A stretch of DNA of 64,000 bases, taken from assembly GCA_965209035.1 (NCBI GenBank), contig OZ242372.1, positions 704,001 to 768,000 of the forward strand, in the 5' to 3' direction. This document shows, in pieces, positions 3,851 through 28,770 of the stretch; within the stretch, counting starts at the first letter, position 1, and each line of letters opens with the position of its first letter. The translations under genes were made by a program, and so were the position numbers. This DNA comes from Gammaproteobacteria bacterium (GTDB taxonomy: Bacteria; Pseudomonadota; Gammaproteobacteria; CBDBNL01; JAAOII01). The notes beneath the pieces were generated by a model, which was not told where the DNA came from, made no database searches, and worked only from the letters and a program-made list of their open reading frames with translations.

Positions 3851-4014
3851 AAGAATTGCATAAAACATAAGACTCGCACAGCACATGATACAAAAGCATT
3901 AATAAAATAATACCCGACAGAGAATGACTCGCACCAACGCAACACAAGAATTATAACAAAAAAAACTAAAAAAACACGCTTTTTAATGATTTTTTATCAA
4001 ATCTTTGTTAAAAA

Positions 4015-4096
4015 TGGAGAGGGCAGGATTCGAACCTACGAAGCACGAGGCGGCAGGTTTACAGCCTGCTGGGTTTGACCGCTCCCCAACCTCTCC
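4015..4096 (-). tRNA. tyrU: tRNA-Tyr (GTA)
   Basis: GGAGAGG..CCTCTCC stem, anticodon loop CTGTAAA, long variable arm; discriminator A followed by TTTT, so no CCA. Confidence 0.96.
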
Positions 4097-4105
4097 CCAA
4101 TAATA

Positions 4106-4178
<73 letters not shown>

Positions 4179-4328
4179 CAGAGATGTTATTTTAACCTTC
4201 AATGATTGAATGTGTAACAGATTTTTCCAAATTTTTGCCCCATAAAACAGATTTGCACTCTTAATTAAGATAATCAATGTTACTATTCATTAATCAATAA
4301 TCTCACACAAACACCGTGAACAGAATTC

Positions 4329-5834
4329 TTAATAATATGTGGATTCCAGTTCGGTGAATATCTCTATCTGGGTTTTTCGTTCGTCTCTTCTGGTTCGGTC
4401 CAGTTCAAGCAAATAATCCGGCGTGATCCCGCCTGTAACATATTTGCCGTCAAACATAGAACAATCAAAGTTTTTAATTTTTGTAGTGTCTCCGCCAACC
4501 GCTTCCACCAAAGAAGGCAGATCTTGGTAAACCAAACCGTCTGCACCGATGGAAGCACAAATATCTTCCGCATCGCAGCCATGTGCAATGAACTCGCTCT
4601 GAGAAGGCATGTCTATGCCGTAAACATTGGGGTAGCGCACAGGAGGCGCGGCAGATGCATAATAAACATGTTTTGCCCCGGCCTGACGTGCCATAGCGAT
4701 AATCTGTCGGCAGGTTGTTCCGCGCACAATCGAATCATCCACCAATAGGACATTCTTATTACGAAATTCAAAATCTATGATGCTCAGTTTACGACGAACC
4801 GAAGCATCTCTTAGGTGTTGATGTGGCATGATAAAAGTTCGACCGATGTAACGATTTTTGACGAGTCCCTCTCTGTAGTTGATGCCAAGATTCAATGCCA
4901 CTTCAACCGCGGATACGCGACTACTGTCCGGAACAGGAATGACCACATCTATGCGGTCTTTGGGGATCTTTTGGCGAATTCGCTTGCTGAGAGAAACACC
5001 CATTCGCTGCCTCGCCTGATGAACGGAGATCCCGTCAAGAACAGAATCCGGACGCGCAAAGTAAACATACTCAAAAATACAGGGCGATTTTTTGCCGCCA
5101 TAAACATGACGAAACAAGTCACCTGTCTCGGTGATTAACAACGCCTCACCGGCTTCCAGATCACGCACAACGGAAAAGCCTTGAGACTGCAAAGCAACCG
5201 ATTCGGAAGCAACCATGTATTCTGTTTTTGCCAAGCGGCGCCCTCGGCGTTCTCCCAAAATCAGAGGACGAATGCCATGTTTGTCGCGAAATGCCAATAC
5301 GCCTATCCCCAGCAGCAAGCAAACAGCCGCATAACCGCCTTCGCAGTTTTGGTACAACTGTTCAAGTGCCTTAAAAATTTGTGACGGCTCCGAAATATTG
5401 GAAGCAACGGGTTCCAAACAATATGCCAAATAATTGAGCATTAGTTCCGAATCGGAATTTGTATTGATATGCCGACGAGCATTAAGACGTAATTCTTCGC
5501 GAAGTTCGTGCGTATTGTTAATTGTCCCGTTATGGGCCAAGGAAATTCCATAGGGGCTGTTAACATAAAAAGGTTGACACTCGTTCGGATGCTCACCGCC
5601 GGCTGTCGGGTAACGCACATGTCCGATGCCCATATTGCCTCGCAATTGCAAAAGATGTTTCGATTCGTCAAATACTTCACTAACCAACCCCTTCTGACGA
5701 CGCAGATAAATAGAGTTTTTTTGGGCAGTTGCAATCCCGGCACCGTCTTGCCCGCGGTGTTGAAGCATAGTCAAGGCATCAAAAATACTCTGATTGACAT
5801 CAGTTTGGGCATATATACCCACCAGCCCGCACAT
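4329..5834 (-). CDS. purF: Amidophosphoribosyltransferase
   Basis: N-terminal MCG, LQHRGQD, GHVRYPTAG, PRPP-binding VLLVDDSIVRGTT. Confidence 0.98.
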   Translation of the reverse strand: MCGLVGIYAQTDVNQSIFDALTMLQHRGQDGAGIATAQKNSIYLRRQKGLVSEVFDESKHLLQLRGNMGIGHVRYPTAGGEHPNECQPFYVNSPYGISLAHNGTINNTHELREELRLNARRHINTNSDSELMLNYLAYCLEPVASNISEPSQIFKALEQLYQNCEGGYAAVCLLLGIGVLAFRDKHGIRPLILGERRGRRLAKTEYMVASESVALQSQGFSVVRDLEAGEALLITETGDLFRHVYGGKKSPCIFEYVYFARPDSVLDGISVHQARQRMGVSLSKRIRQKIPKDRIDVVIPVPDSSRVSAVEVALNLGINYREGLVKNRYIGRTFIMPHQHLRDASVRRKLSIIDFEFRNKNVLLVDDSIVRGTTCRQIIAMARQAGAKHVYYASAAPPVRYPNVYGIDMPSQSEFIAHGCDAEDICASIGADGLVYQDLPSLVEAVGGDTTKIKNFDCSMFDGKYVTGGITPDYLLELDRTRRDERKTQIEIFTELESTYY

Positions 5835-5932
5835 TTTTATTTACTCGTGTTTTTTGAAAAAGAAGTCGTCAAGATTTCCCAACCCGACATGCCCGACGAG
5901 AAGACCGGGCATCCTTTGGCAGATTTACAAGT

Positions 5933-6460
5933 TTACAAAACACATAGCCCGCCCCAAAGAACATCACATATTTTTTGTAAAACAGAGTTTGCCCAATACA
6001 ACTCCCATTGTTCCAAATAGGGAGTCAGACGAGAATTTTGCCAATAAGCACTTTCGTCCAAAGTTAAAAGGCGAACGATCTGGACAATAAAAATGCTTTG
6101 AACGGCCAACAAAGGCAAACTCAGAATCCCGCCAATCGCCCTTGTCAGAGGGACGGTGGTAACATTTGGATAACTTAACATCACAAAAGATACGATGATC
6201 CTAAGAAAAACGAACAGAAAGAAAAATATCAGGGCAAAGGGTAATAACAGCAAAAGTTCCGGGTCGGTAACATAGCGGCCCAATGGCTTTTGCAAAATAC
6301 CCGCAATCACTTGCGAAGAAGTCAAAACAGCTAACCAGAGAATGAGTGCAATCAAAGCCTTCACAAAGCCGCGAGATATGCCCACGCCGATTAAAATAAC
6401 CGCCAAGGCGACAAGTATCCAGTCCGTCTCATTAAATGAGGTAATGTTTATTAGTTCCAC
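5933..6460 (-). CDS. cvpA: CvpA family (colicin V production) membrane protein
   Basis: DWIL..GISRGFVKAL hydrophobic pattern, W.NSRL.P motif; canonical dedD-cvpA-purF order. Confidence 0.85.
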   Translation of the reverse strand: MELINITSFNETDWILVALAVILIGVGISRGFVKALIALILWLAVLTSSQVIAGILQKPLGRYVTDPELLLLLPFALIFFFLFVFLRIIVSFVMLSYPNVTTVPLTRAIGGILSLPLLAVQSIFIVQIVRLLTLDESAYWQNSRLTPYLEQWELYWANSVLQKICDVLWGGLCVL

Positions 6461-7008
6461 TTTCTTATTATGCTATCCATTTGAAATAATCTGTCAACTT
6501 CTCCTTTATTATGAAGGGCTTTATCTTTTTGTAGGGTTGGTCCCACATAAACCGCGTATATTATATCATTTTCGGATTGTTTATGACTATGTGTAAAAGA
6601 AATAAATCCTTTGTCCGCCAATTCTTGCTTCAATTTTTGTGCGGATTCTTTGCTTTTTAATGAAGCCACCTGAACTACCCAGCGCACCGGAATTCCATTA
6701 TCATCAAAAGAAAAAGCATCCAGGCCGGCCTCACCGGCTTTGGGTTTGACGGTTTTCTTGGCATCTTTGCCGGAATTTTTTGCTTGAGTTTGAACATTTT
6801 CTTTGATTTCGGATAATTTTTCTTTGATCTCCAAAGAGTCAGAGACGGGCGGCGGCGGTTTTAACTCAAGCTCAACAAATCCCGGCGGCACTTCAATATC
6901 CCGATAGGAATGCGGCGGGATGTTGCGTAAAAGTTGTAAAAAAACAATCACCGCAATCACCAAAACAATGACCCCGCCTAAGATGCGAGAGCGAATCTTG
7001 TCATCCAT
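6451..7008 (-). CDS. dedD: SPOR-domain cell division protein DedD
   Basis: N-terminal TM (RILGGVIVLVIAVIVF), linker, C-terminal SPOR (WVVQVASL, VYVGP); upstream of cvpA. Confidence 0.85.
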   Translation of the reverse strand: MDDKIRSRILGGVIVLVIAVIVFLQLLRNIPPHSYRDIEVPPGFVELELKPPPPVSDSLEIKEKLSEIKENVQTQAKNSGKDAKKTVKPKAGEAGLDAFSFDDNGIPVRWVVQVASLKSKESAQKLKQELADKGFISFTHSHKQSENDIIYAVYVGPTLQKDKALHNKGEVDRLFQMDSIIRKWN

Positions 7009-7029
7009 TTTGTTAATTCAATTTCAACA

Positions 7030-8634
7030 TCAATCAAAAACAACCCGAATGCCTATGACGGAAGATTTGTGATGCAAAGGGGCCTTTGCATAATAACTAT
7101 AATACGCGCTTAATGGACCGGGAAGGCGATAGTTTCCTCCTTTAACTATGGCCTTAAGAGTCGCACCTTCCGGGGTAAAAGAACTTGTCCATTCCGAAAT
7201 ATTACCCGCCATTGACACCACCCCTGTGTTTGTTTTATCCGCTAACTCTTTGCGAACAGGAATCGGCACATCCGGCGTATATTGATTTTCAAGATCTCGC
7301 ACATGCGCCGCTTCTTTTTGATACGCATTTCCCCAGGGGTAAGGCTTACGAGAGTCACCGCCGAAAGCATAAAGCCATTCGCGTTCGGTAGGCAGCCTGC
7401 CCCCGGCCCATTTCGCAAATGCATAAGCACTCCACCAATCAATACCAACCACAGGCAGATCCAATTGACCGGTCTGTTCTTGCCAATTCGTTGGTCGATA
7501 AGAATGTTTACGCGGTTGGTTTTTGTTCGCATAAAAGCCGAGACCGGCAAAAGGGTCACGCAAAAAACTTCGATATTGTGCCCGACTCACTTCATACTTA
7601 CCAAACCTAATGTCCCCGTTCTGCGGAGAAACTGCCGAGAGAAAGTTTCTAAAAGAAGACGGTTTGATTTCTTCGGATCGCGACAGTAACTTGGGCGCAT
7701 AATGCCGAGCAGCAATGCCGATAAAATAAGAACCACCCGAAACACGAACGACCTTACTTTTTGCATTCCACGGTATTTCTCGCACGGAGTTTTTCAAGTC
7801 TTTGTCCCGGTTGTTCGGCGGGTAAACACAACGAAACCCGGTGTACTTGGAACGAAAAGAAAAAGGTGCCGGCCGTGCAATAAAATTGAGAGCATGGATC
7901 TGATGCGGGCGATTATAACTGTTACCGCCGCGTAGCACAGATCTTTTGTCTTCCGTGATCTCCAAAGTCCATTCCGAAAGACCGCTCCCCAAATCATAAA
8001 CACCTTCGGGACTGGCATTTGGCTGACGCTGTTTATCCGAGGCCGCCAAATTCAACAGAGGATCACTATAACGCCATGCCGAGGCAACAAACTTCTCTCC
8101 CCAAGGATAGGATCTGTTTTCTTTGCCGCCGGCAGCGGCAATCCATTGTTCTCGATTTGGGAGAGAGCCACCGACTGCGGAACAATAAGCATAGGCCTCG
8201 TAAAAGCTCACCCCGGCTGCCGGAAGTGCCAGTTTTCCTAAAATAGGATGTCGGGCATGCGGGTTTTGAAAACGATAGTCCGCTGGCTGAGAAACATGCA
8301 CATGCCGTTGCCCGGATGCTCCTTGTAAAACATACCAGTTCAGAAATTGGCGGTAATCACTTTGACGAACTTCGTATTTATCAATATAAAAAGCGTCGAT
8401 CCGCAACATCTCACCCGAAGCCATGATTTGATCCCTTAGTTCCCCGTTACCCAAAACATAACCGGCGTGTTCGGCAATTGCCCGGTCCAAACCGCTCAGC
8501 GGAGTTTCTTGAGCGGGAACATCCAACGCGACGCGTTCTATGAAACGTGCCTGTACTCGTAAAAAAATAAGATAAACCGCCAGTGCGAAAACCGGCAATA
8601 TCCATAAAACAAGGTAAGTGAATCGTCTCAGCAT
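7030..8634 (-). CDS. Membrane-anchored protein with two FGE-sulfatase (SUMF1/GldK-like) domains
   Basis: Two copies of the family motifs: FYIDKYEV/FGKYEV, A.AYC...GG.LP..EQW and AYAFAKWAGGRLPTEREW, YPWG, G.LSEW/GNISEW, RGG/KGG, GFRCV/GIRVV; N-terminal TM. Confidence 0.85.
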   Translation of the reverse strand: MLRRFTYLVLWILPVFALAVYLIFLRVQARFIERVALDVPAQETPLSGLDRAIAEHAGYVLGNGELRDQIMASGEMLRIDAFYIDKYEVRQSDYRQFLNWYVLQGASGQRHVHVSQPADYRFQNPHARHPILGKLALPAAGVSFYEAYAYCSAVGGSLPNREQWIAAAGGKENRSYPWGEKFVASAWRYSDPLLNLAASDKQRQPNASPEGVYDLGSGLSEWTLEITEDKRSVLRGGNSYNRPHQIHALNFIARPAPFSFRSKYTGFRCVYPPNNRDKDLKNSVREIPWNAKSKVVRVSGGSYFIGIAARHYAPKLLSRSEEIKPSSFRNFLSAVSPQNGDIRFGKYEVSRAQYRSFLRDPFAGLGFYANKNQPRKHSYRPTNWQEQTGQLDLPVVGIDWWSAYAFAKWAGGRLPTEREWLYAFGGDSRKPYPWGNAYQKEAAHVRDLENQYTPDVPIPVRKELADKTNTGVVSMAGNISEWTSSFTPEGATLKAIVKGGNYRLPGPLSAYYSYYAKAPLHHKSSVIGIRVVFD

Positions 8635-8676
8635 TTTATTATCATATGATTATAATGCAACACCTATCTGCGGAAC

Positions 8677-10479
8677 TTACGAAGTCAGGCGAGTACGGGT
8701 AATGCCGCTACCAAGTGCCCAAAGAACCATCACAATTAAAATAAAGGTCCCGCCGTAAACCAGACTCAACACGATCTCACGCCGAGAAGAAAAAACCGGT
8801 AACTTGGTAAAAATGGACTGACTTCCCAAGTAAACTTTGTTCAGTTCCCCCAAAACTCCAAAATCAAACCCTTCAATAATTTCACCTCCGTAAACATATC
8901 CGATGACCACATCGGAGATGTTCGGATCCAAAACAGCGACGGGATACCACCGCTCAAAATCCAAAATATCACTCGGTATCAGAAGCGTATCTCCGCGAAA
9001 AATCTCGGTTGTCTTGCCCGTATCCGGATAAGGAAAAAGGCGCATGTCAGCATTGACCCATTCCGCCAGGCGAGGTGTACTTTGAAATAAATTCATTGAA
9101 AAAAGGTGTATGCTATCCAAGGGACCATTAATCGGCATCAATAAACGACTTAAACAAAAAGAACAAAGGCGATATTCAACTTCCAAGGGACCCTCTTTTG
9201 TTTCAAAAGCAGTCCGCATGTTTTCCCGTAAACTCTCCGCCAATTGCATCTCTTCCGTGCTGACACCGGAAAAGCCGCTTGTCAAAAACTCCGTAAAAAA
9301 TTGATCCGGGTTTATGCTGTCAATTCCGTTTTTATCCGCACGACGCAAATATTCGTTCAAGAACAGAATCATAAAAGTATGATAATCCACCGGCTCACCC
9401 TCTTGTCCCGGCGGAAAGGCGTTTTCAAAAAGTTGTTGAAACAACAAGGTTCCTTCTTCGCCCTCTCCTCCGAAAGGAACGCGAATCTTCACAGAAGAAG
9501 GCCTGCCAAAAGAATCACCCTCGGTGCCGCGTTCCTCCGTTATGGCTCTTGCCAATTCTTCGGCCAGAGTATCTCCGTAGCCGCCGTCATTATTTGCCTC
9601 AAACTCCGACAAACTTTCGGCTCGCTCTCGCCTTTCCAGACCGCCGCGCGCCAGTCCCACTGTCTCACTCGGTGGCAATAATTCTTCAATCAACTCGGCA
9701 TCCCTCAAAGATCCCCCTTCAGGAATATCCTCCGGAATGATGGCAGCCGCATCTTCCGTATCCGTATTACCGCCTTGCTCTCGCACTTCGGGAGATTCCG
9801 GATCTTCTTCCAAACCCTCTCCGTTACCTTCGTCTTCTTCACCGTCCGATGCGGAACCATTTGACGATGTCTCGTCACTCTCACTCAGAGTATCTCCTTC
9901 GCCACCAGGAGGCAGGGGCACAGATTCACCGACAAAATGCCAATGGCTCGGCTCCACTCCGTTCTCGCGCAAAATAGAAAGTCCGAGATAGTAAAGATCC
10001 GCGGAATAAATGTCCAATCTGGCCCGTTGTTTTTCCACCGGGTTTAAAAGACTTAAATACACATCCAAGGCGTTATTTTCACGCAGCAGTTCCCCCCGAT
10101 TAAAGATGCGTCCCGAGTTGCGCTCGCGTATATAACCCGCATGCAGTTCAAAAATTGGATAAAGCCATAACAAGCAATCATGCCGTTCGTATTCGTTTCT
10201 CCAAGGGCCACGCGGCGAAGCACAATGATAGTTATGCAAAACGGCCGGCGGGCTGCTCGGTAAATCGTTGAATACCAAACTGCCGGCAATATCGCGAGCA
10301 AGAATGGCATCAATTTCAACACTTTGTTCTGTCTCCTGTTCCGCTTGAATCTTTCTTTGATTAATCGTAATGATAATCACTACCAACAGAACAACCACGC
10401 CGTTGGCCAAAATATCCGCCAAAGCAACACCGCCAAAACTGCCAATAATCTTTTTCTTCTTGCCCGCGAAACGATGCAT
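8677..10479 (-). CDS. Hypothetical membrane protein; N-terminal MotB/ExbD-like TM, acidic linker, C-terminal TM
   Basis: 600 aa ORF; basic N-terminus then GGVALADILANGVVVLLVVIII with an intramembrane Asp; E/D/G-rich middle; hydrophobic C-terminus. Confidence 0.75.
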   Translation of the reverse strand: MHRFAGKKKKIIGSFGGVALADILANGVVVLLVVIIITINQRKIQAEQETEQSVEIDAILARDIAGSLVFNDLPSSPPAVLHNYHCASPRGPWRNEYERHDCLLWLYPIFELHAGYIRERNSGRIFNRGELLRENNALDVYLSLLNPVEKQRARLDIYSADLYYLGLSILRENGVEPSHWHFVGESVPLPPGGEGDTLSESDETSSNGSASDGEEDEGNGEGLEEDPESPEVREQGGNTDTEDAAAIIPEDIPEGGSLRDAELIEELLPPSETVGLARGGLERRERAESLSEFEANNDGGYGDTLAEELARAITEERGTEGDSFGRPSSVKIRVPFGGEGEEGTLLFQQLFENAFPPGQEGEPVDYHTFMILFLNEYLRRADKNGIDSINPDQFFTEFLTSGFSGVSTEEMQLAESLRENMRTAFETKEGPLEVEYRLCSFCLSRLLMPINGPLDSIHLFSMNLFQSTPRLAEWVNADMRLFPYPDTGKTTEIFRGDTLLIPSDILDFERWYPVAVLDPNISDVVIGYVYGGEIIEGFDFGVLGELNKVYLGSQSIFTKLPVFSSRREIVLSLVYGGTFILIVMVLWALGSGITRTRLTS

Positions 10480-10484
10480 TTTGT

Positions 10485-11006
10485 TTATCTGCTTTTTTCC
10501 AGACTGCGGCGGATACGCGGTGGCAGATCTTCCAAGCGCACCGCTTGCAGAAAATCGTCATTTGCAATAATCCAACCGATGGAAATTCTTCGGTTTGGCC
10601 ACATGTTCTTTAAACAATCGCGCGCCAACCGCATAGTGGAAACACTGCCTGTGGTGATTGCAAAAATTAATTGGGTATTTTTTTTATCGTATACTTCGCG
10701 CGCATAGTTGGCAAAGTTTGTTTGCGCGCAGTCTTTGCGTAAGTCCGCTCTGTTCGTTGCTTCCTTTTTTTCTATGACATGCACTCTGTCCGGAAAAGTG
10801 AGCACAATATAGCCTTCGGCACCCTGTTCCCAATTAATCTTGTAAATGCTGTCTTCCAGAGAGTTTTCCACCTGAGCCCGCAATTCCGATTCGGCAAAGA
10901 TATTGATCAGCAGGAACAAAATTAATAGCAAGGCAAATGCCGCGCCAAAGATTTCTACCATAGGGGTATTGCCGCCGGCCAGATCCTGGCGCGTTCTACG
11001 GGGCAC
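10485..11006 (-). CDS. Hypothetical ExbD/TolR/MotB-like single-TM protein
   Basis: MPRRTR basic N-terminus, then PMVEIFGAAFALLLILFLLI, resembling the P(M/L)(I/V)D ExbD motif with Glu; starts just after the MotA-like gene. Confidence 0.7.
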   Translation of the reverse strand: MPRRTRQDLAGGNTPMVEIFGAAFALLLILFLLINIFAESELRAQVENSLEDSIYKINWEQGAEGYIVLTFPDRVHVIEKKEATNRADLRKDCAQTNFANYAREVYDKKNTQLIFAITTGSVSTMRLARDCLKNMWPNRRISIGWIIANDDFLQAVRLEDLPPRIRRSLEKSR

Positions 11007-11009
11007 GGG

Positions 11010-12116
11010 CTATACTTTTTGTGCTAGTTGGTTTTCAAGAAACAAAAATTTCTGCTCTTCCCACTTTTGCAAGGCAGTGTACAGAAAAACCAAAAATACA
11101 CTCAATGACAGAGCGATCAAGGTGGTATCAAATGCAATACTTAAAGGTTCCATTGCCCGGTTAATTCCTTCTCCCACATTAACACTTGTTGTGCCAACAA
11201 TGTTTCCTATTTCACCGGCCGCCAACGAAATTCCAAGAACTGTGCCAATAAACCCCAAAATGGGAATCGCCCAATTAATGTAACGCGGCACAAAGTAAAA
11301 GTTTTCGTTGATCTGCCAAACTGTTTCCAAAAAATCTCCGGACACAGACTTGGCAAGTTTGTCTTTTTTCCTGTTGTCCGAATACTCCCGCCATAATGAG
11401 GATATGGCAGAATCGGCCGAGGCAACCCTTAGATGACGAAAACTTAAATAATATTTACCCGCCAAAAGAACCAATTCCCAGTAAAAGAGTGTCAAACACA
11501 AGGGAGGAATGAGACCGCGTTGCAAGAATTTTTCTCTTAAGAAAACAAGCCCGCCGTCGCCAAACAAGTAAAACAAAACCATCGTCAAAGAGGTTAATAT
11601 TGCGGCAACACAAAAACTGACATACAAAGAAGGTCCGCCAAGCAAGCCGTGCAGCCGCTGTTGCAATGAAATTGTTGGCATCATCTCCGAATAAAGAAAA
11701 CGGAGCAAAATTCCGACACAACCGAGGCCCAAAAGGAAAAACAACATCACAGTATGTCCGGCAATATCCGGCGGTTTTTCTCGAAGCAAACCATCCCACA
11801 AAAAGTAACTGCTTAGCAACACCGTAATTAACAACACGATTGCATTAACGGCAATCGCCACACGCATCGCCATCCGAATACCCGCACCTTGTGTGTCTTT
11901 GACATAGATAAACCGAACCGCATAAAGCAAAACATCCGCCAACAACCCGATCACCAATCCGACAACAAGTGTCAATCCCATCAAAGAGGTGAGTGCGCTC
12001 AAAGAAACGGGTAAAAATAACAGGTTGAGCCACCAAACAATTCTGCCAAACTTGCCGGCAAGTTTATTTTTTTTATTTTGGCCCTTTTTGCCAAGGTCTG
12101 CCGTTCTCTTTTTCAT
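11010..12116 (-). CDS. MotA/TolQ/ExbB proton channel family protein with extra N-terminal TM helices
   Basis: WAIPILGFIGTVLGI and LSIAFDTTLIAL channel-helix motifs at the C-terminus; about 6 extra hydrophobic segments upstream. Confidence 0.85.
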   Translation of the reverse strand: MKKRTADLGKKGQNKKNKLAGKFGRIVWWLNLLFLPVSLSALTSLMGLTLVVGLVIGLLADVLLYAVRFIYVKDTQGAGIRMAMRVAIAVNAIVLLITVLLSSYFLWDGLLREKPPDIAGHTVMLFFLLGLGCVGILLRFLYSEMMPTISLQQRLHGLLGGPSLYVSFCVAAILTSLTMVLFYLFGDGGLVFLREKFLQRGLIPPLCLTLFYWELVLLAGKYYLSFRHLRVASADSAISSLWREYSDNRKKDKLAKSVSGDFLETVWQINENFYFVPRYINWAIPILGFIGTVLGISLAAGEIGNIVGTTSVNVGEGINRAMEPLSIAFDTTLIALSLSVFLVFLYTALQKWEEQKFLFLENQLAQKV

Positions 12117-12679
12117 TTTTTATTTGTTCGTTGTTTTTTATCTTGCCCATCCCGGTTATCTTTTATCTCCTTGTAAAACGAGCCGTCGTGCGGCTTGTTT
12201 TCAACGGATCCTTCCTCTTTGTTCTGTGTCCCGTTACCCGCGGAGTTGCCCACTGACGTACCCGATGCGTGTGCATCGTCTCTTTTTGTATGCTTCCCGG
12301 GTGGCTTTCCTTTTGTATGGTGAAAGCGACCACTCATGGATACGCCGTGGCGCATGTCTATATCCCGGTAATAAATATCGCCGCGCACACTTGCCCCGGG
12401 CATCAAACTGATCACGCCTTTGGAGTAGATACTGCCGGTTACTTTTCCAAAAATAATGACTCTGTCCGCACGAATATCACCAATGATTTGGGCATTTTTA
12501 CCAAGTATTAACTTGTTTTTCCCTTCTTCTTCGGCAACCAAATCGCCGCGCACGGAACCGTCAAAATAGAAACTACCGCTAAATAACAGGTCCCCGCGAA
12601 TCTTAACAACCGCATTAACATAGGTATCCGATCCCTTAACATCTATACCCGATTCCGGTCTGTTTTTCCCAAACATCAA
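12113..12679 (-). CDS. Bactofilin (polymer-forming cytoskeletal protein, CcmA-like) with charged C-terminal tail
   Basis: Beta-helix pattern IRGDLLFSG..FDG.VRGDL, LILGKNAQIIGDI, IIFGKVTG.I, VRGDI.Y. Confidence 0.9.
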   Translation of the reverse strand: MMFGKNRPESGIDVKGSDTYVNAVVKIRGDLLFSGSFYFDGSVRGDLVAEEEGKNKLILGKNAQIIGDIRADRVIIFGKVTGSIYSKGVISLMPGASVRGDIYYRDIDMRHGVSMSGRFHHTKGKPPGKHTKRDDAHASGTSVGNSAGNGTQNKEEGSVENKPHDGSFYKEIKDNRDGQDKKQRTNKK

Positions 12680-12692
12680 AGAAAGATCCGAA

Positions 12693-13052
12693 TTACCCGC
12701 CGGTGTTTATAAAAGTATTTGCATTCACGCTGGATGACACTTCCAAGGACAAACTTTCACTTTTAATCTCACCTGTGATGCGACCTCCTGCCAGTACACT
12801 GCAACTTTGGGCAATAACTCCGCCCTCCACAAGACCCTTGACATAAACATTGACCGCATGGATTTTCCCTTTAACAGAACCATTTTTCCCTATGGACACA
12901 TCATCGGTACTTACAAGACTTCCTTCCAAATGACCATCCAAATGCAGAGTCCCTGCCAAATTGATGTCGCCGGTCAAAGTAGTCCCTGAAGTGATAACCG
13001 TAGTCCCTCTTTGTCCTGTTGTTGTAATATTGCCGCTATTATCGGTTCCCAC
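12693..13052 (-). CDS. Bactofilin (CcmA-like)
   Basis: TTVITSGTTLTGDI, LHLDGHLEG, IGKNGSVKGKI, VKGLVEG. Confidence 0.9.
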   Translation of the reverse strand: MGTDNSGNITTTGQRGTTVITSGTTLTGDINLAGTLHLDGHLEGSLVSTDDVSIGKNGSVKGKIHAVNVYVKGLVEGGVIAQSCSVLAGGRITGEIKSESLSLEVSSSVNANTFINTGG

Positions 13053-13954
13053 TTAACTGATTTTATGGTTAAAAAAATCTTATTATAATTTACAAGATTC
13101 CAATTATAAAACAAATACGGATTAATTGGCTTGTCCAGATAGCGGACCTCATAATGCACATGCGGACCGGTTGATATCCCGGTGTTGCCACCCAAAGCAA
13201 TTTGTTCTCCCTTTTGCACCACATCTCCTTTGCTCACCAAGTATTCATCCAAATGTCCGTATACGGTGGAAAATCCGTATGCGTGTTCCAATATCACAAC
13301 CTTGCCATAACCTCCTTTATAGCCGGTAAAAGTTACAGTGCCGGGAGAGGTTGCCACCACACTGTCTCTCATTCGTATGGGAAGATCTATGCCGTGGTGA
13401 AACTGACGGTAATTACGCAAGGGATGAATGCGGACACCATAACTGCTACTAATGTAAGTATCTTTTGCCAAAGGAGTACCGCTGGGAAGAGCATATAGCA
13501 CGCGGGCACGACGATGAATCTCATTATCTAACACACCAAATACCTCTTTATATTCATACGATGACGCGGAATTAAAACCTACAAATTGCGGCGATGCAAA
13601 AATATCGTTCGTTTTTTTCTGCTCCAATACATTCGCAAGAACATTCAATCTTGTCATAATAGCGGATTGAATATTTTCGTTGTGTAACAGTTCTTCCGAC
13701 AGCGTATTGCTGTATACCCGCTGATTATTATATTTGGTTGTCATGCTCTTATATTTAATGTGCATGTCAGCATACTGTCTTTGAATATAATCCTTTTGTT
13801 CTTGCAAGTAATCCACCAAAAATGTGCCTCCAATCAAGCCGACCATCATAGAAAATAACAGGCCCACACCGAGAAATACAACGAACCGATGCGTCCGGAT
13901 CACCCGAGTTCCGTGAATACTACTGATTGTAATTGTTGATCTTTTATGAAGCAT
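12974..13954 (-). CDS. M23 family metallopeptidase, Csd1-like
   Basis: HHGID, YGHL, TGPHVHYEVR zinc motifs; N-terminal TM and coiled coil; C-terminus overlaps the bactofilin start. Confidence 0.9.
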   Translation of the reverse strand: MLHKRSTITISSIHGTRVIRTHRFVVFLGVGLLFSMMVGLIGGTFLVDYLQEQKDYIQRQYADMHIKYKSMTTKYNNQRVYSNTLSEELLHNENIQSAIMTRLNVLANVLEQKKTNDIFASPQFVGFNSASSYEYKEVFGVLDNEIHRRARVLYALPSGTPLAKDTYISSSYGVRIHPLRNYRQFHHGIDLPIRMRDSVVATSPGTVTFTGYKGGYGKVVILEHAYGFSTVYGHLDEYLVSKGDVVQKGEQIALGGNTGISTGPHVHYEVRYLDKPINPYLFYNWNLVNYNKIFLTIKSVKWEPIIAAILQQQDKEGLRLSLQGLL

Positions 13955-14061
13955 TCTATTTATATCATTATCCGGTAGTTACCTTTATCTATAGCATAAG
14001 TCATTCATTCCATATATACTATCAATATTATACATCTTACAGGCAAAAACTATGCATACCT

Positions 14062-14127
14062 TGTATGATCCCACCCATTTCCGGACTTTTTTTGTTTTTG
14101 TAAAAATTGGATCGGCGAGAGTTGTTG
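14062..14127 (-). mobile_element. IS481-like right-end fragment (copy 1, left edge of adhesin island)
   Basis: TGTATGATCCCACCCATTTCCGGAC...GGATCGGCGAGAGTTGTT is the reverse complement of about 34983-35047. Confidence 0.65.
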
Positions 14128-14345
14128 AGGGAAAAACGCGTATCAGCCGGCATAAAAGACCCGGGTGCTTGCCAATAGATTTCGAATAACAGATGAAAGG
14201 CAGAGACTAAGAATAAGTTAGAAGTTGGAAGTTGAACGAGCAGTCGTCTTATTTGTCGTGCTCTGTCCTGCCTCGTCCTGTCCCGCCCCGATCTGCCGGT
14301 CCGTTCCGGGGCTTCCCTCTTGCCGAACTCTCTTGCCGGCCTCTC
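14128..14345. repeat. Conserved 3' trailer of adhesin paralogs (copy 1; others at about 16428-16661, 20345-20561, 29853-30057)
   Basis: Near-identical block of about 200 bp (GTATCAGCCGGCATAAAAGACCCGGGTG...GAGCAGTCGTCTTATTTGTCGTGCTCTG...) after each paralog stop. Confidence 0.85.
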
Positions 14346-16274
14346 TTACCGGCCTTGTGTCGAGAGGCCGCCCGGCAGGCAATTCAGGGCCGGGTATTGG
14401 CTGCTCGTGCCGAGATCCCAGACGCGGATGAAGGAGGCACCTGGCCCGTCATCGGTGGCATCTTCCATTTCCTCGCCGGTGTCCGGATCACACCAGAAGC
14501 TGCCCCAGACCTCATAGATGCTCCCGGCAAACTCGGTCGGCGATTGCAAGGCTGTCGTGCTATGACCATCGCCCAAATTACCGGCACTCATAGACTGCAT
14601 GGTGGTTTGATTGTCCCAGTAGGAAGCAATGACATCGGTGTCACTATTGTTGCTGCCGATCAATCCGCCGACATCACTGAGACCTGAAACAAGCCCGGGG
14701 GCGGCATAAGAATAATTAATTTGAGCTCCTGCCCCCGTCCCAACTAGGCCGCCAACACGCGGTCCGGTTGTTCCCTTAACACTTCCGCCGGACACATAAA
14801 CATGGCGAATATTCGCGCTATCCCCTTCCCCTATCAGGCCGCCAACAGCATTACTCCCGGCAACATTCACACCGGACACGGGCGCATAGCGAATATCCGC
14901 ATCCTGACCAAACCCAACCAGGCCGCCAACAGCATTACTCCCGGCAACATTCACACCGGACACGGGCGCATAGCGAATATCCGCATCCTGACCAAACCCA
15001 ACCAGGCCGCCAACATTGCTCCTCCCGGAAATATTCACACCGAACACGGACGCATAGCGAATATCCGCATTAAACCCCTGCCCAACCAGGCCGCCAACAT
15101 TATTAATCCCGGAAATATTCACACCGGACACGGACGCATAGCGAATATCCGCATTCTCGCCCTTCCCAACCAGGCCGCCAGCAAAAGAATCCGCCCCGGA
15201 AACAACTCCGCCGGATACGACGGCATAGCGAATATCCGCATCCTCGCCATTCCCAACTAGGCCGCCAACATTACTACTCCCGAAAACATTCACACCGGAT
15301 ACGGACGCATTGCGAATATCCGCATTCCTACCATACCCAACCAGGCCGCCAACATTAGTGGCACCGCTACTGACATTTGCATTCCGGAGATGCAGATTTT
15401 GGATATCGCCGGTTAAGGCACCAAACAACCCCACTCCATTGGCAGTATTGTTCGCAGAGATGAACAGATCTGCAATACGATAACCCCCGCCGTCAAAGAT
15501 TCCGGTATAAGACGTGCAAACAGTCGATGATGAACAAGAGCCGATCGGCTGCCAACCGCTGCCGGTCGTCCAGACAGACCGGTTGCCACTGCCCGCGGCA
15601 TAGGAATCCGCATCGCTAAAATTCAACGAGCGAGTTAATTCGTAGCCATTACAGCCGGAACTCGGGCAACCCACAGAACCCATAGCGGTAATATTGGGAA
15701 ACATCCCATCATCCGTTCCATTGCCATTGAGATTATCGCGCAGCCGTGCCAAGTCATCCAAAGTGCTGATTTCTATGAGGCTGTTATTATTGTCGTCCAC
15801 ATCTGTCTCATCCAAGATCTCGTCATTGTCATCGTCCGGGTCCTCCCTCAGGGTTGTTTGACATCCGGTAACCAAACTATCCGGCAGCTCATCGCTATCC
15901 GTGTCCACACTCGCACAGGCATCTGTCCGGAACGCATCGTTCGTATCCGCCACGCCATCATTGTCATCGTCCAAATCCTCGCCCGCATCGCGACAGCCGT
16001 CACGGTCATTGTCCGTAGATGCATTGGAAGTCCAGTCGGTATCGCCGCTCGGACAGGCGTCCGCAGTATCCGCAATGCCGTCCCCATCCAAGTCTGTGTT
16101 CGTTCCCCCGCCGGAACCGCCGCCACCGGAACCGCCACCGCCACAGGCGGCGAGTAGGACAACCGATAGAGTGATTGTCAATAATAAAATGATGCCGCTG
16201 CGTGCCGTTTGCCCGGCCGCGGCAATACATGCAATGCAGTTGCTACTGATAGTTTGTATATTAAATATGTTCAT
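14346..16274 (-). CDS. Lipoprotein adhesin-like paralog 1 (TSP3-like Asp-rich repeat plus GLUG repeats)
   Basis: Lipobox VLLAAC then Gly linker, DLDGDGIAD..DACP motifs, VGGLVG repeats, shared C-terminus VWDLGTSSQYPALNCLPGGLS. Confidence 0.85.
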   Translation of the reverse strand: MNIFNIQTISSNCIACIAAAGQTARSGIILLLTITLSVVLLAACGGGGSGGGGSGGGTNTDLDGDGIADTADACPSGDTDWTSNASTDNDRDGCRDAGEDLDDDNDGVADTNDAFRTDACASVDTDSDELPDSLVTGCQTTLREDPDDDNDEILDETDVDDNNNSLIEISTLDDLARLRDNLNGNGTDDGMFPNITAMGSVGCPSSGCNGYELTRSLNFSDADSYAAGSGNRSVWTTGSGWQPIGSCSSSTVCTSYTGIFDGGGYRIADLFISANNTANGVGLFGALTGDIQNLHLRNANVSSGATNVGGLVGYGRNADIRNASVSGVNVFGSSNVGGLVGNGEDADIRYAVVSGGVVSGADSFAGGLVGKGENADIRYASVSGVNISGINNVGGLVGQGFNADIRYASVFGVNISGRSNVGGLVGFGQDADIRYAPVSGVNVAGSNAVGGLVGFGQDADIRYAPVSGVNVAGSNAVGGLIGEGDSANIRHVYVSGGSVKGTTGPRVGGLVGTGAGAQINYSYAAPGLVSGLSDVGGLIGSNNSDTDVIASYWDNQTTMQSMSAGNLGDGHSTTALQSPTEFAGSIYEVWGSFWCDPDTGEEMEDATDDGPGASFIRVWDLGTSSQYPALNCLPGGLSTQGR

Positions 16275-16362
16275 AATTTATTTTTGTAATTGTGAATTAA
16301 TAAAGTTCCCTAAATAAGGAATAGTAATAATATACCATATTTCGCCGGATCTTCCTTTGAAT

Positions 16363-16427
16363 TGTATGATCCCACCCATTTCCGGACTTTTGTTGTTTTT
16401 GCAAAAACCGGATCGGCGAGAGTTGTT
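16363..16427 (-). mobile_element. IS481-like right-end fragment (copy 2)
   Basis: Same TGTATGATCCCACCCATTTCCGGAC block as at 14062. Confidence 0.65.
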
Positions 16428-16661
16428 GAGGGAAAACGCGTATCAGCCGGCATAAAAGACCCGGGTGTTTGCCAATAGATTTCGAATAACAGATGAGAGG
16501 CAGAGGCTAAGAAGTGGGAAGTTGAACGAGCAGTCGTCTTATTTGTCGTGCTCTGCCTTGCCTCGCCCTGTCCCGCCCCGATCTGCCGGTCCGTTCCGGG
16601 GCTTCCCTCTTGCCGGCCTCTCTTGCCGGACTCTCTTGCCGGACTCTCTTGCCGGCCCCTC

Positions 16662-19259
16662 TTACCGGTCTTGTGCCGAGAGGCCGCCCGGCAGGCAATT
16701 CAGAGCCGGGTATTGGCTGCTCGTGCCGAGATCCCAGACGCGGATGAAGGGGGCGGGCAACTCGGTGGTGCTTTCCGCACCAGTGTTCGGGTTGCACCAA
16801 GCATTGCCCCAGTCGGCATAAATATTGTCCATCCCCGTGAAGTCGGTCGGCGATTGTAATTCCAGCGTGGTCTTACCTCCACCGGGATGACCGGCATCGA
16901 TTGGCTGTTCGGTGGTTACAGTATCCCAGTAGGAAGCAGTGACGACGGTGTCACTATTGTTGCCGATCAATCCACCGACAGCATTCTCACCTGAAACAAG
17001 CCCGGGGGCGGCATAAGAATAATTAATTTGAGCTTCTTCCCCATTCCCAACCAGGCCGCCGGCAACACCCCCGGAAACACTTCCGCCGAGCACATAGGCA
17101 TAGCGAATATCCGCATCCTCACCATACCCAACCAGGCCGCCAACAGCAACACTCACCCCGGAAACATTCACACCGGACACGGACGCATAGCCAATACCCG
17201 CATTCTCACCATCCCCAATCAGGCCGCCAACAGAAATACCTCCGAAAACACTTCCGCCGGACACGGACGCATAGCGAATATCCGCATCCTCACCATCCCC
17301 AACCAGGCCGCCAACAGAAAAAGGCCCGGAAACATCCACACCGGACACGGACGCATAGCCAATATCCGCATTAAGCCCCTGCCCAACCAGGCCGCCAGCA
17401 GCAGTATTCCCGATAACATTTCCGCCGGACACGGACGCATTGCGAATATCCGCATTCTCACCATTCCCAACCAGGCCACCGGCAACCCTTCCGATAACAC
17501 TTCCACCGGACACGGACGCATTGCGAATATCCGCATTCCCACCATTCCCAACCAGGCCACCGGCAACACTCCCGAAAACATCCACACCGGACACGGACGC
17601 ATTGCGAATATTCGCATTCCTACCATCCCCAACCAGGCCACCGGCAACCTTCCCGGCAACACTTCCGCCGGACACGGGCGCATTGCGAATATCCGCATTC
17701 CTACCATACCCAACCAGGCCGCCAGCAACAGTGGTGGCACCGCCACTGACATTTGCATTCAAGAGATGCAAATTTTGGATACCGCCGGTTAAGGCACCAA
17801 ACAACCCCACTCCATAGGCAGTATTGCTCGCAGAGATGAACAGATCTGCAATACGATAACCGCCGCCGTCAAAGATTCCGGTATAAGAGGTGCAATCATT
17901 CACAGCGGAACAAGAGCCGATCGGCTGCCAACCGCTGCCGGTCGTCCAGACAGTCGGGTTGCCACTGCCCGCGGCATAGGAATCCGCATCACCAAAATTC
18001 AACGAGCGAGTCAGCTCATAACCCACACAGCCGCCGTCATCGTCATCCGGGCAGCCCATAGAACCCACAGAGGTGATCTCGGGGATACGGTCATCATCCG
18101 CCCCATCGCCGTTCAGATCATCGCGCAGCCGTGCCAAGTCATCCAAAGTGTGGATCTCGATCAAGCCATTATTATTGTCATCCACATCCTCTGTCAAGGT
18201 AGTATTCACACCGGTCGTGCAACCGGCAGCGAGTTTGTCCGGTGCTCCGTCTCCATCCGTGTCGATGCTCGCACAGGCATCCGTCACAAACGCATCGTCC
18301 GGATCCGCCACGCCATCATTGTCATCGTCCGAATCTTCATCTGTGTCGCGACAGCCGTCACCGTCATGGTCCGCGGACGCATTGGAAGTCCAGCCAGTAA
18401 CACCGGTCGGACAAGTATCGGCCGTATCCGCCACGCCATCATTGTCATCGTCCGAATCTTCATCTGTGTCGCGACAGCCGTCACCGTCATGATCCGCGGA
18501 CGCATTGGAAGTCCAGCCGGTAACACCGATCGGACAAGTATCGGCCGTATCCGCCACGCCATCATTGTCATCGTCATCATCACAGGCATCACCGCCGTCA
18601 TCCGCATTGTCCGTGTTGGCTTGGTCCGCATTGGCAACCAACGGACAATTATCGTTATCATCATCCTCACCGTCACCGTCAATATCTGTGCCTACACCCG
18701 CTCCCGTTGTGCTTGACACAGGAGGTGAGGTCACGATAATGCCGTTCTTATAACGCACCGCAACTGTGATGCTGTAGGTGATGTTATTGGTTAAATCCGT
18801 AATATTGTAGCTGACCCAAGCACGCGGCGAAACATCCGCCACGGTAGAACTAAATTCTTTTGTTGTGCCACCATCGCTCGCATCGTCACGGCGTGTGGTA
18901 ATAACGAACCCGTCGATATTATCCAAGGCCGGATTAGTCCAATCCACGAGAATATAATCCTCACCGGCCAGAGCCTGCATATTGAAAACAGCCAGGAAAT
19001 TCTGAGAAGCAGGATCGCCGCCGCCACCGATGCCATCGCTGCCGCCACAACCTGTCAGGACCAAACCGAACATACCCGCCAGCAGTACACCGTAAAAACG
19101 AGCCAGTATGCACATCCGTCGTGCCCTATTGGGTTCGGGAAAAGCCTTAAAGGCATTAAAAGCATTAAAAATATTAAGGAGACGCACAGATACCGTGCCT
19201 CTTTGTTCGCGGCGCATTGCTTTCGCCGACCGCACAGGAAAAAAGTGTAACTGATTCAT
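16662..19259 (-). CDS. Lipoprotein adhesin-like paralog 2 (FN3, TSP3-like repeats, GLUG repeats)
   Basis: Lipobox LVLTGC; FN3-like ILVDWTNP...YNITDLTNNITYSITV; DNCPLVANADQANTD TSP3 motif; two 41-aa repeats; GLUG tract. Confidence 0.88.
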   Translation of the reverse strand: MNQLHFFPVRSAKAMRREQRGTVSVRLLNIFNAFNAFKAFPEPNRARRMCILARFYGVLLAGMFGLVLTGCGGSDGIGGGGDPASQNFLAVFNMQALAGEDYILVDWTNPALDNIDGFVITTRRDDASDGGTTKEFSSTVADVSPRAWVSYNITDLTNNITYSITVAVRYKNGIIVTSPPVSSTTGAGVGTDIDGDGEDDDNDNCPLVANADQANTDNADDGGDACDDDDDNDGVADTADTCPIGVTGWTSNASADHDGDGCRDTDEDSDDDNDGVADTADTCPTGVTGWTSNASADHDGDGCRDTDEDSDDDNDGVADPDDAFVTDACASIDTDGDGAPDKLAAGCTTGVNTTLTEDVDDNNNGLIEIHTLDDLARLRDDLNGDGADDDRIPEITSVGSMGCPDDDDGGCVGYELTRSLNFGDADSYAAGSGNPTVWTTGSGWQPIGSCSAVNDCTSYTGIFDGGGYRIADLFISASNTAYGVGLFGALTGGIQNLHLLNANVSGGATTVAGGLVGYGRNADIRNAPVSGGSVAGKVAGGLVGDGRNANIRNASVSGVDVFGSVAGGLVGNGGNADIRNASVSGGSVIGRVAGGLVGNGENADIRNASVSGGNVIGNTAAGGLVGQGLNADIGYASVSGVDVSGPFSVGGLVGDGEDADIRYASVSGGSVFGGISVGGLIGDGENAGIGYASVSGVNVSGVSVAVGGLVGYGEDADIRYAYVLGGSVSGGVAGGLVGNGEEAQINYSYAAPGLVSGENAVGGLIGNNSDTVVTASYWDTVTTEQPIDAGHPGGGKTTLELQSPTDFTGMDNIYADWGNAWCNPNTGAESTTELPAPFIRVWDLGTSSQYPALNCLPGGLSAQDR

Positions 19260-19436
19260 TATTTTCTATTGTTTATTATTGTTTTCTATTATGATTAATA
19301 TTAATATTTTTTTATAGTTCATATTTTTTGTGTGAAATGTTTCCTTGAATTTTACAAAATTCAAAGAAACATCTCACGATGCTGCACTAGTTACTTGAAT
19401 TTAAGCATTATTATAACTTTAATTTTCAAAATCATG

Positions 19437-19562
19437 TGTATTCCCGCCTATTTTCGGACTTTTTTTATTTTTGTAAAAACCGGATCGGCGAGAGTTGTTT
19501 GAGAGCATAATGGGGACGTTCGCGATGAGCTTGGCGTTGAATGCCGGCATATCCTTGTAAAA
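19437..19562 (-). mobile_element. IS481-like right-end fragment (copy 3, longer, internally deleted)
   Basis: Matches the reverse complement of 34900-35047, including GGCGTTGAATGCCGGCATATCCTT. Confidence 0.65.
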
Positions 19563-19567
19563 ACGAA

Positions 19568-19680
19568 CCGGTATGCACATCCGTCGTGCCCCTTTGTTCG
19601 CGCACCCACCGCACAGGAAAAAAGTGTAACTGATTCATTATTTTCTATTGTTTATTATTGTTTTCTGTCATTATTAATAT
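19568..19680 (-). pseudogene. Collapsed 5' relic of a fifth adhesin paralog
   Basis: CCGGTATGCACATCCGTCGTGCCC, CTTTGTTCGCG and CCGCACAGGAAAAAAGTGTAACTGATTCAT plus the upstream AT tract are pieces of the paralog 5' end joined by deletions. Confidence 0.75.
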
Positions 19681-19749
19681 TAATTTTTGAGAATTATATG
19701 CTTTGTGACCCATAAAAAAGTAAGTGTCATTATTATTCCATTAAATGAG

Positions 19750-19900
19750 AGTTGAGGAGTAAAATATGAGCATAAATACTGGTAAATACAAGAAAAAAGA
19801 GGGTTATTTTCTGTTCGAGACATTCAGAATGGAAGTTTTGGCAGATCCCCGGGCTGTTTGCAATGGATCTTGAGGCAAATGGCAAATTTTTTGAAGTGCA
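19750..19900 (+). mobile_element. Decayed 5' fragment of IS1016-like element
   Basis: GTAAAATATGAGCATAAAT..GTAAATACAAG..TTTTGGCAGAT..GGATCTTGAGGC aligns with the reverse complement of about 29340-29460; near-identical to 34705-34865. Confidence 0.7.
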
Positions 19901-19982
19901 TAGGTTGTCAAGTGTATAATTCCCCTTTTTTGAGACATCACTCAACCATTATTATAACTTTAATTTTCAAAATCATGCTGTA

Positions 19983-28754: not shown

Positions 28755-28770
28755 TACTTTCTATTGTTTA

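Follow-up and report, generated by a model that had tools for sequence, protein, structure and literature searches.

A stretch of 64,000 nucleotides from a gammaproteobacterial genome (contig OZ242372.1, positions 704,001 to 768,000; hereafter, the window) carries four consecutive genes, which encode a channel protein of the MotA/TolQ/ExbB type, two membrane-anchored proteins of 173 and 600 residues (p173 and p600), and a protein with two domains of the formylglycine-generating enzyme (FGE) fold. We regard this cassette as a real, conserved, and undescribed candidate motor of four genes. It is on balance probable that the four products form an inner-membrane machine of the MotA/TolQ/ExbB kind driven by the ion motive force, and the best reading is that of an energised envelope machine resembling Tol, Ton, and GldLM. 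A preliminary description of the same DNA had joined the bactofilin and M23 peptidase genes lying upstream to this machine and had linked it with the neighbouring adhesins; both links are to be dropped.

One genome per species of GTDB was scanned with a p173 alignment, which gave 38 loci (L001 to L038), and hidden Markov models made from the homologues at these loci were run over every open reading frame (ORF) of the loci. The channel gene was located directly upstream of the p173 gene in 32 of the 37 loci having upstream DNA (L032 is cut) and was absent beside p173 in L006, L010, L035, L036, and L037. The p600 gene was found downstream of p173 in 36 of 37 loci (cut in L019), and the tandem FGE gene followed p600 in 33 of 34 (cut in L009, L013, L019, and L027); the exception was L006 in both cases. 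All four genes were intact in 27 loci and in the window, and the co-occurrence in other genomes that the preliminary description had looked for was thus observed. The median spacings across the loci were 3, 3, and −4 bp, with frequent 4-bp overlaps, and the GC content of the loci ranged from 31% to 69%. This arrangement is far above chance for the four genes only, not for seven, and the conserved unit is four genes, or three where the channel gene is missing. All 38 loci are from metagenome-assembled genomes labelled Gammaproteobacteria, Pseudomonadales, or families within these. The pairwise distances of the four core proteins correlated with one another (r of 0.95 to 0.97, 28 sets), which shows joint inheritance, as expected from common descent, and not co-evolution. 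In addition, a fifth conserved gene was sought in the flanks of 10 loci, and none was found there. The 63 flanking ORFs of these loci were assigned by Pfam to ribonucleotide reductase, TilS, GreA, MsrA, GspL/M, IMP dehydrogenase, RuvA/C, DNA methylases, and others. Since the flanks are unrelated and mostly housekeeping genes, they count for the autonomy of the cassette.

Premature stops in L038, a suggested frameshift in L032, and the presence of p173 alone in L006 might be taken as signs of a remnant that has degenerated or lost its function, or of four proteins that do not work together. However, the 27 intact loci and the window, spread over the GC range given above, together with the invariant polar residues in the membrane helices and the frequent 4-bp overlaps, display the pattern of genes under constraint, and we consider a remnant very improbable. 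L032 (apparent frameshift) and L038 (premature stops) were excluded from the alignments of p173, p600, and the FGE protein.

The channel protein was matched by Pfam MotA_ExbB (PF01618) over residues 247 to 355 with 29.1 bits against a cut-off of 22.9, and this 368-residue protein is a divergent member of the MotA/TolQ/ExbB family. The motif of its second transmembrane helix (TM2), PILGFIGTVLGI, aligns with the segment YIGLFGTVWGI of the TolQ protein encoded in the window, and AFDTTLIALSLS in the third (TM3), whose motif is AFDTTL, aligns with the TolQ segment AEALIATAMG. G288, G291, T292, D330, T331, and T332 were invariant in all 33 channel homologues. The cytoplasmic loop before TM2 is short (about 60 residues), and the tail following TM3 comprises about 20 residues, whereas the N-terminal 190 residues are hydrophobic and poorly conserved. 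A hydropathy scan revealed about seven hydrophobic segments, three of which correspond to the TolQ core. The extra N-terminal helices number about four or five; an excess of helices had been noted earlier and is present, but the figure of six then given does not agree with the hydropathy profile and the TolQ alignment. The TolQ protein used here belongs to a canonical ybgC-tolQ-tolR-tolA-tolB set at 54762-58656 on the minus strand of the window. The separate canonical tolQRAB genes had been recognised before, and the claim that the cassette represents an additional unit of the MotA/TolQ/ExbB type is likewise supported.

Among 8000 candidates scored, 537 clusters matched the channel at E ≤ 0.001. 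The best 120 of these 537 all had E < 1e-40, and many had no precomputed Pfam domain. Because so many relatives are without a precomputed Pfam hit, the channel subfamily lies at the edge of the Pfam MotA_ExbB model. The homologues are annotated at their sources as 'MotA/TolQ/ExbB proton channel family protein' for the channel, 'formylglycine-generating enzyme family protein' for the FGE protein, and 'hypothetical protein' for p173 and p600.

The sole PDB sequence match of the channel at E ≤ 1 was 8vvn_C, a 696-residue chain with a MotA/TolQ/ExbB domain (E 0.019), and the sole PADLOC match among the 7 proteins scanned was that of the channel to ZorA (E 0.016, 12 bits). The cassette would accordingly be comparable to a Zorya-like membrane anti-phage system, in which a MotA-like/MotB-like unit senses envelope damage, and the varying genomic contexts, with a DNA methylase and an HNH gene in L023, a transposase gene in L007, and a Fic gene in L017, could be cited to the same effect. 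Both possess a MotA-like channel that is unusual in its architecture and falls outside the flagellar, Ton, and Tol systems. On the other hand, both matches are at chance level, and neither Pfam nor PADLOC revealed a resemblance to the peptidoglycan-binding domain of ZorB or to a cytoplasmic nuclease or helicase effector; no match of the ZorB or ZorC/D/E type was obtained among the 7 proteins scanned with PADLOC. The cassette also differs from Zorya in having no long cytoplasmic tail on the channel, no peptidoglycan-binding partner, and no effector of the ZorC/D/E type. Furthermore, its non-channel parts are periplasmic, and most of its flanks are housekeeping genes. A Zorya-like function is thus quite improbable.

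p173 consists of a basic N-terminus, a single membrane helix containing TPMVEIFG, and a small alpha/beta periplasmic domain. Glu18, which stands in a P-x-x-E spacing, was invariant in 37 of 37 sequences, as was Asn35 in the helix. In the TolR alignment, P17 and D20 are invariant, and the P-x-x-acid spacing is the same as that of p173. When the two were compared by hhalign, these motifs were superposed, with a probability of 0.97%, which is not significant. The p173 family is small: 37 representatives were obtained at E ≤ 0.001 with HMMER from 1.84 billion representatives, and none of the 37 had an ExbD/TolR-like length or name. A word-indexed search of 5.8 billion clusters, in which only 121 candidates were scored, gave 22 matches, and the ESM Atlas yielded only clusters of unnamed hypothetical proteins. 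No family was matched by p173 in Pfam (E ≤ 0.1), NCBIfam, or PADLOC. ExbD and TolR were not among the matches of the p173 profile to PDB sequences, and whether p173, p600, or the p173 profile was used, the PDB sequence matches were all at chance level, the estrogen receptor and ADP-ribosylation factor being examples. The AlphaFold 2 (AF2) model of p173 had a mean predicted local distance difference test score (pLDDT) of 75.5, with values above 90 across most of residues 71 to 140, and its elements are ordered as three strands, a helix, a strand, a helix, and a strand. Among the Foldseek matches listed for this model, the highest probability was that of the ExbD periplasmic domain 8pek (0.72, E 0.25); ExbD 8vgd (TM score of 0.66 on the target, root-mean-square deviation of 3.5) and TolR 5by4 were listed as well, and all of these are non-significant.

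p600 is anchored in the membrane at both ends. Following a basic N-terminus, its first helix contains GVALADILAN, and Asp22 in this helix was invariant in 35 of 35 sequences. The helix is followed by a conserved periplasmic domain extending to about residue 185, in which H82, H179, W180, and H181 were also invariant (35 of 35); H82 and the H179-W180-H181 triplet may form a putative metal or catalytic site. An acidic linker, variable and disordered over about 150 residues, then leads to a C-terminal alpha/beta domain (about 330 to 560), which was well modelled by AF2, and a second membrane helix at 569-587 is followed by basic residues. The mean pLDDT of the p600 model was 68.9, with values below 50 at 191-303. 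Pfam (E ≤ 0.1), NCBIfam, and PADLOC gave no family match for p600, and no usable match of its C-terminal part was obtained in the ESM Atlas; nor could the C-terminal domain be assigned a fold by Foldseek against the PDB. Among the Foldseek matches listed for p600, TolR 5by4 had the highest probability (0.44; 82 columns, root-mean-square deviation of 3.5, E 1.5), and this weak resemblance falls on the first periplasmic domain.

Both partners therefore share with ExbD and TolR a topology in which a short basic N-terminus precedes a helix whose acidic residue is near the cytoplasmic end. The basic N-termini and the acidic residues (Glu18 in PMVEIFG and Asp22 in ALADIL) had been pointed out in the preliminary description and are present as stated, and no OmpA-family peptidoglycan-binding domain was found in either protein by the Pfam scan at E ≤ 0.1, which agrees with the earlier remark. 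The claim of two single-pass partners is correct for two distinct proteins with invariant acidic residues, but p600 has a second, C-terminal helix. The label MotB/ExbD-like was favoured by the topology and the weak fold matches and disfavoured by the Pfam and hhalign tests of sequence and profile; the Foldseek comparison that had been recommended for both proteins gave no match at E ≤ 0.001, with ExbD and TolR at the top of those listed and non-significant. p173 and p600 resemble ExbD, TolR, and MotB in topology and in the buried acid, and neither is assignable to that family. The idea that p173 and p600 are paralogues was rejected, their hhalign comparison being non-significant.

Complex prediction was carried out with p173 and residues 1 to 190 of p600, both given as alignments, in three runs with three controls. 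The median score of the pair was 0.49 (0.49, 0.02, and 0.62 in the individual runs), compared with 0.01 for the best control; the agreement of contacts was at least 21%, and the pLDDT of the partners was at least 65. Of 157 solved complexes, 116 attained the mark applied to this score, as did 2 of 215 mismatched pairs, and passing scores of 0.60 or below were found for only 18 of the 157 solved complexes and for both passing mismatches. Solved dimers of ExbD and of TolR exist, and for this reason the p173/p600 score may in part reflect likeness to them. As weak support, the prediction would raise the odds of a p173-p600 heterodimer a little; the score does not settle whether the two proteins might form a mixed axle or whether p600 might serve as a transducer in a Tol-like layout.

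Several observations weigh against reading the cassette as a motor with ExbD-like partners. Pfam ExbD (PF02472) matched neither p173 nor p600 at E ≤ 0.1. Against an alignment of 21 TolR/ExbD sequences, hhalign detected no relation for p173 (probability of 0.97%) or for p600 (0.44%), and p173 and p600 had no detectable relation to each other by the same method (0.97%). With the models of p173 and p600, Foldseek gave 0 matches each against the PDB at E ≤ 0.001. Nothing equivalent to the C-terminal helix of p600 exists in MotB, ExbD, TolR, TolA, or GldM, and such a helix is hard to reconcile with a protein that should extend to the outer membrane. In the complex prediction, one run out of three scored 0.02, and the overall verdict is only weak. 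In L010, L035, L036, and L037, a p173-p600-FGE set occurs with no channel gene within 10 kb, and in L006 the p173 gene stands alone, the other three core genes being absent within 10 kb. Finally, all carriers of the cassette are metagenome-assembled genomes.

A different assignment of roles within an energised machine has to be considered, namely a Tol/Ton layout in which p173 alone forms the axle dimer, p600 is a TolA/TonB-like transducer outside the ring, and the FGE protein is TolB-like. The order of the cassette genes, which encode a channel, a small protein with an acidic helix, a long one in which a disordered linker leads to a C-terminal domain, and a periplasmic protein, mirrors tolQ-tolR-tolA-tolB of the window, the spacing of P-x-x-acid in p173 is TolR-like, and the complex run that scored 0.02 agrees with such a layout. 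It is less easily reconciled with the N-terminal Asp of p600, which is invariant in 35 of 35 sequences and hard to place facing lipid, or with the fact that the first periplasmic domain of p600 is the part weakly resembling TolR. Moreover, p600 ends in a second membrane helix and not in a domain reaching the outer membrane, and the heterodimer prediction passed, if weakly. We consider this layout possible, though doubtful. A more far-reaching proposal, that the cassette represents a new 5:2 motor class of Gammaproteobacteria, whose axle is a heterodimer of an ExbD-like protein with Glu and an unrelated, doubly anchored protein with Asp and whose output is a non-catalytic FGE-fold protein like GldK and GldJ, is rather unlikely.

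The protein encoded by the last gene of the cassette begins with a hydrophobic segment, either an anchor or a signal, after which come two domains of the FGE-sulfatase fold (PF03781). Its matches to PDB sequences were equal in strength for human FGE (E of about 3e-12) and for PorK/GldK chains (E of about 7e-12), and its score with the NCBIfam GldK model (TIGR03525), 65.6 bits against a cut-off of 350, is below the equivalog level. The only cysteines of this protein are C151 and C269, which are both conserved and both located in domain 1, and their positions look structural (YC and GFRC motifs); domain 2 contains none. The catalytic cysteine pair of FGE lies near the C-terminal end of the domain, after the GG motif and before the GFRC motif at the terminus, and there was no cysteine in this interval in either domain. 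For this reason, both domains may be read as non-catalytic modules for binding or scaffolding. The tandem, non-catalytic FGE-fold protein announced in the preliminary description was borne out in that the Pfam match covers two stretches and the catalytic cysteine pair is missing. The window protein has no lipobox cysteine, since no cysteine precedes residue 151. A cysteine was observed in the N-terminal helix of a few distant FGE homologues.

A periplasmic placement of the non-channel parts follows from their helices. In the proposed mechanism, the channel protein would form an outer ring as TolQ and ExbB do, and the acidic helices of p173 and p600 would make up an axle within the ring pore, paired with each other in a heterodimer or, alternatively, each in a homodimer of its own. 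Ions passing the Glu18 and Asp22 sites would move the ring against the axle, and this movement would reach the tandem FGE protein by way of the small periplasmic domains resembling TolR and the periplasmic portion of p600, which is long and tethered. The FGE protein would then serve for binding or as a scaffold, a role that GldK/PorK has for GldLM, and its gene has the position of tolB in tolQRAB. The target would most likely be an envelope or periplasmic substrate.

The cassette was compared with the characterised systems to which this mechanism is closest. As in Tol and Ton, the channel belongs to the MotA_ExbB family, and it aligns with TolQ at TM2 and TM3. In contrast, no relation of p173 and p600 to ExbD/TolR could be detected at the level of sequence or profile, the acidic residue of p173 is Glu and that of TolR is Asp, and p600 has its own acidic helix and C-terminal membrane helix, with no domain of the TonB_C or TolA type found by Pfam. 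In the cassette channel, helices are added at the N-terminus and the cytoplasmic loop is shorter, and the product of the last cassette gene has the FGE fold, whereas TolB is a beta-propeller. With GldLM/PorLM and GldK/PorK/GldJ, the cassette would share an ion-driven inner-membrane motor encoded beside a non-catalytic FGE-fold periplasmic protein, and PorK chains rank with the best matches of the cassette FGE protein in the PDB sequences, as given above. It differs from GldK in the low score with the GldK model and in the missing N-terminal lipoprotein cysteine. No counterparts of GldL, GldM, and GldN were found, the cassette channel is a true MotA_ExbB member, and the carriers are Gammaproteobacteria. 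The AglR-AglQ-AglS gliding motor of Myxococcus is composed of one TolQ-like and two different TolR-like subunits, AglQ and AglS being ordinary TolR-family proteins. The cassette is similar in having one channel and two different partners; its partners are, however, mutually unrelated and outside the TolR family. In the review PMC9389320, GldK is described as contacting GldM, and the Agl motor is named.

No characterised system matching the cassette was found in Pfam, NCBIfam, PADLOC, the PDB sequences, or the literature searched, in accordance with the earlier view that the set does not correspond to one already characterised. In titles and the beginnings of abstracts, no link of FGE or formylglycine proteins with ExbB, ExbD, or TolQ together with MotA was evident, and none of bactofilin, M23, and MotA was evident among the matches listed. 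The words 'formylglycine' and 'sulfatase' were absent in a term search of the available text of two motor reviews or surveys (PMC9389320 and PMC12505986).

Every new motor of the MotA/ExbB type has revealed another route from ion flow to envelope work. To our knowledge, the uses of such motors are few, namely flagella, Ton, Tol, Agl gliding, GldLM/PorLM, and Zorya. The cassette offers a channel subfamily so divergent that many of its members escape Pfam, two partner families for which no annotation was found, and, at the proposed output, a protein of the FGE fold. With four genes it is compact, and Glu18 and Asp22 are clear targets for point mutation; since the carriers are all uncultured, heterologous study would give the first handle on it. 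We know of a membrane motor coupled to an FGE-fold periplasmic structure only in gliding and type IX secretion of Bacteroidota. If the cassette were a new 5:2 class, the coupling of a motor to an FGE-fold protein would have arisen or spread beyond the Bacteroidota.

The genes around the cassette in the window are listed in Table 1. Ten co-oriented genes on the minus strand span 13954 down to 4329, and the ORF list and Pfam agree with the earlier account of seven co-oriented genes at 7030-13954 running on into dedD-cvpA. Calculated from the coordinates, the spacings from bactofilin 1 (Bac1) through bactofilin 2 (Bac2), the channel, p173, p600, and the FGE gene to the DedD gene are 13, −4, 3, 5, 42, and 21 bp. 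The overlaps and gaps of 3-42 bp reported earlier hold for these spacings from Bac1 to DedD, but the longest Bac1 ORF starts 79 bp within the 3' end of the M23 gene (12974-13052). The same 79-bp overlap is present in the gene calls of L001, and a similar one was seen in stop-to-stop ORFs of L002 and L004.

Table 1. Co-oriented genes at the cassette, in the order of transcription
Feature	Position	Strand	Family match	Remark
M23 (LytM-type) peptidase	12974-13954	−	Pfam Peptidase_M23, E 9e-31	Neighbour, not core
Bactofilin 1 (Bac1), 119 residues by longest ORF	12693-13052	−	Pfam Bactofilin, E 4.7e-20	Neighbour, not core
Bactofilin 2 (Bac2), 188 residues, charged C-terminal tail	12113-12679	−	Pfam Bactofilin, E 6.4e-20	Neighbour, not core
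MotA/TolQ/ExbB-type channel, 368 residues	11010-12116	−	Pfam MotA_ExbB, E 9e-7	Core gene 1
p173, 173 residues	10485-11006	−	No Pfam family at E ≤ 0.1	Core gene 2
p600, 600 residues	8677-10479	−	No Pfam family at E ≤ 0.1	Core gene 3
Tandem FGE-fold protein, 534 residues	7030-8634	−	Pfam FGE-sulfatase, E 5e-50, 2 stretches	Core gene 4
SPOR-domain DedD-like protein	6451-7008	−	Pfam SPOR	Downstream housekeeping
CvpA	5933-6460	−	Pfam Colicin_V	Downstream housekeeping
PurF	4329-5834	−	NCBIfam purF, 474.5 bits against a cut-off of 350	Downstream housekeeping

The preliminary description had proposed that all seven genes encode one machine, in which bactofilins scaffold the motor and the M23 peptidase and which acts in shape, motility, or adhesin export. 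The seven genes are indeed close-packed and co-oriented in the window, L001, L002, and L004, and the stop codon of Bac2 and the start of the channel gene overlap by 4 bp in the window; this packing and overlap make co-transcription of the seven genes likely in this clade. However, when the loci were searched by phmmer with the M23, bactofilin, DedD, CvpA, and PurF proteins of the window, the M23 gene and two bactofilin genes were found beside the core only in L001, L002, and L004 (3 of 33 loci, each with at least 3 kb upstream), with a Bac2 fragment at the contig edge of L003, and the other flanks were unrelated. DedD, CvpA, and PurF were found downstream of the core only in L001 to L004. The window M23 protein combines a cytoplasmic tail with a single helix at 24-42 and carries the motifs HxxxD and HxH (HHGID and HVHYE). 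According to PMC10945521, genes for bactofilins and for M23 peptidases adjoin each other in 226 species, the peptidase LmdC is bitopic in the membrane and binds bactofilin via its cytoplasmic tail, and LmdC and bactofilin constitute a conserved morphogenetic module. The arrangement of that module, as described there, a gene for a bitopic M23 peptidase adjacent to a bactofilin gene, is found in the window, where the peptidase likewise has a cytoplasmic tail; the window differs in having two bactofilins and in placing them in one string with the cassette and dedD-cvpA-purF. The upstream trio thus appears to match a cell-shape module of the LmdC-BacA type, separate from the machine. The M23-bactofilin genes, the cassette, and dedD-cvpA-purF are probably co-transcribed in the clade of the window as a local arrangement.

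The part of the proposal concerning adhesins fared no better. Genes with GLUG and thrombospondin type 3 (TSP3) repeats (14346-31851) lie upstream together with two transposase genes in DNA of 53-57% GC, compared with about 45% around the cassette, and the 63 flanking ORFs scanned at 10 loci included no GLUG/TSP3 gene. The proposed export of these adhesins is therefore not upheld, nor are the bactofilins and the M23 peptidase as parts of the machine, in view of their restricted occurrence and their match to the separate module described in PMC10945521. A single machine of seven genes is improbable. As a caution, operon neighbours are not necessarily parts of one machine; in this case, the genes for the bactofilins and the M23 peptidase come from another module, which is already known.

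A scan of 4000-14600 for promoters and terminators gave 19 promoter-like sites where 16.9 were expected and is uninformative on transcription units; it revealed no terminator-like site in the intergenic gaps. In the window, 14346-34603 encodes GLUG-motif, TSP3-repeat, and fn3 proteins of 642, 865, 2730, 597, and 259 residues, with IS1595-like and DDE_Tnp_1 transposase genes interspersed, and this run looks like an acquired surface-protein island. The GLUG/TSP3 repeats also yield long spurious antisense ORFs. At the canonical tol genes, tolB (54762-56213) is followed without a gap by a gene for an OppC-like permease (53742-54761), and no pal gene is present in the usual position after tolB.

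Some individual loci had further peculiarities. The orphan p173 gene of L006 (9989-10504), whose product scores like other homologues, directly follows a gene for a 1357-residue Lhr-type helicase. In L036, hfq and hflX are located on the opposite strand where the channel gene would be, and in L010 the channel position is occupied by a long ORF with many hydrophobic segments, which by eye is TRAP-type permease-like. L038 has an in-frame TAG in p600 (11816-11818) and an in-frame TGA in the FGE gene (13374-13376), and this locus is either a decaying copy or affected by assembly errors. In L032 (517-3732), the two halves of p600 are matched in separate reading frames, so that a frameshift is suspected; a p600-FGE fusion was considered for this locus and rejected, as the high-GC read-through ORF has the p600 halves in different frames. 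In L007 only, a TonB2-type set encoding a small MotA_ExbB protein, ExbD, a TonB_C protein, and a TPR protein (13760-16555) was found on the opposite strand just downstream of the cassette.

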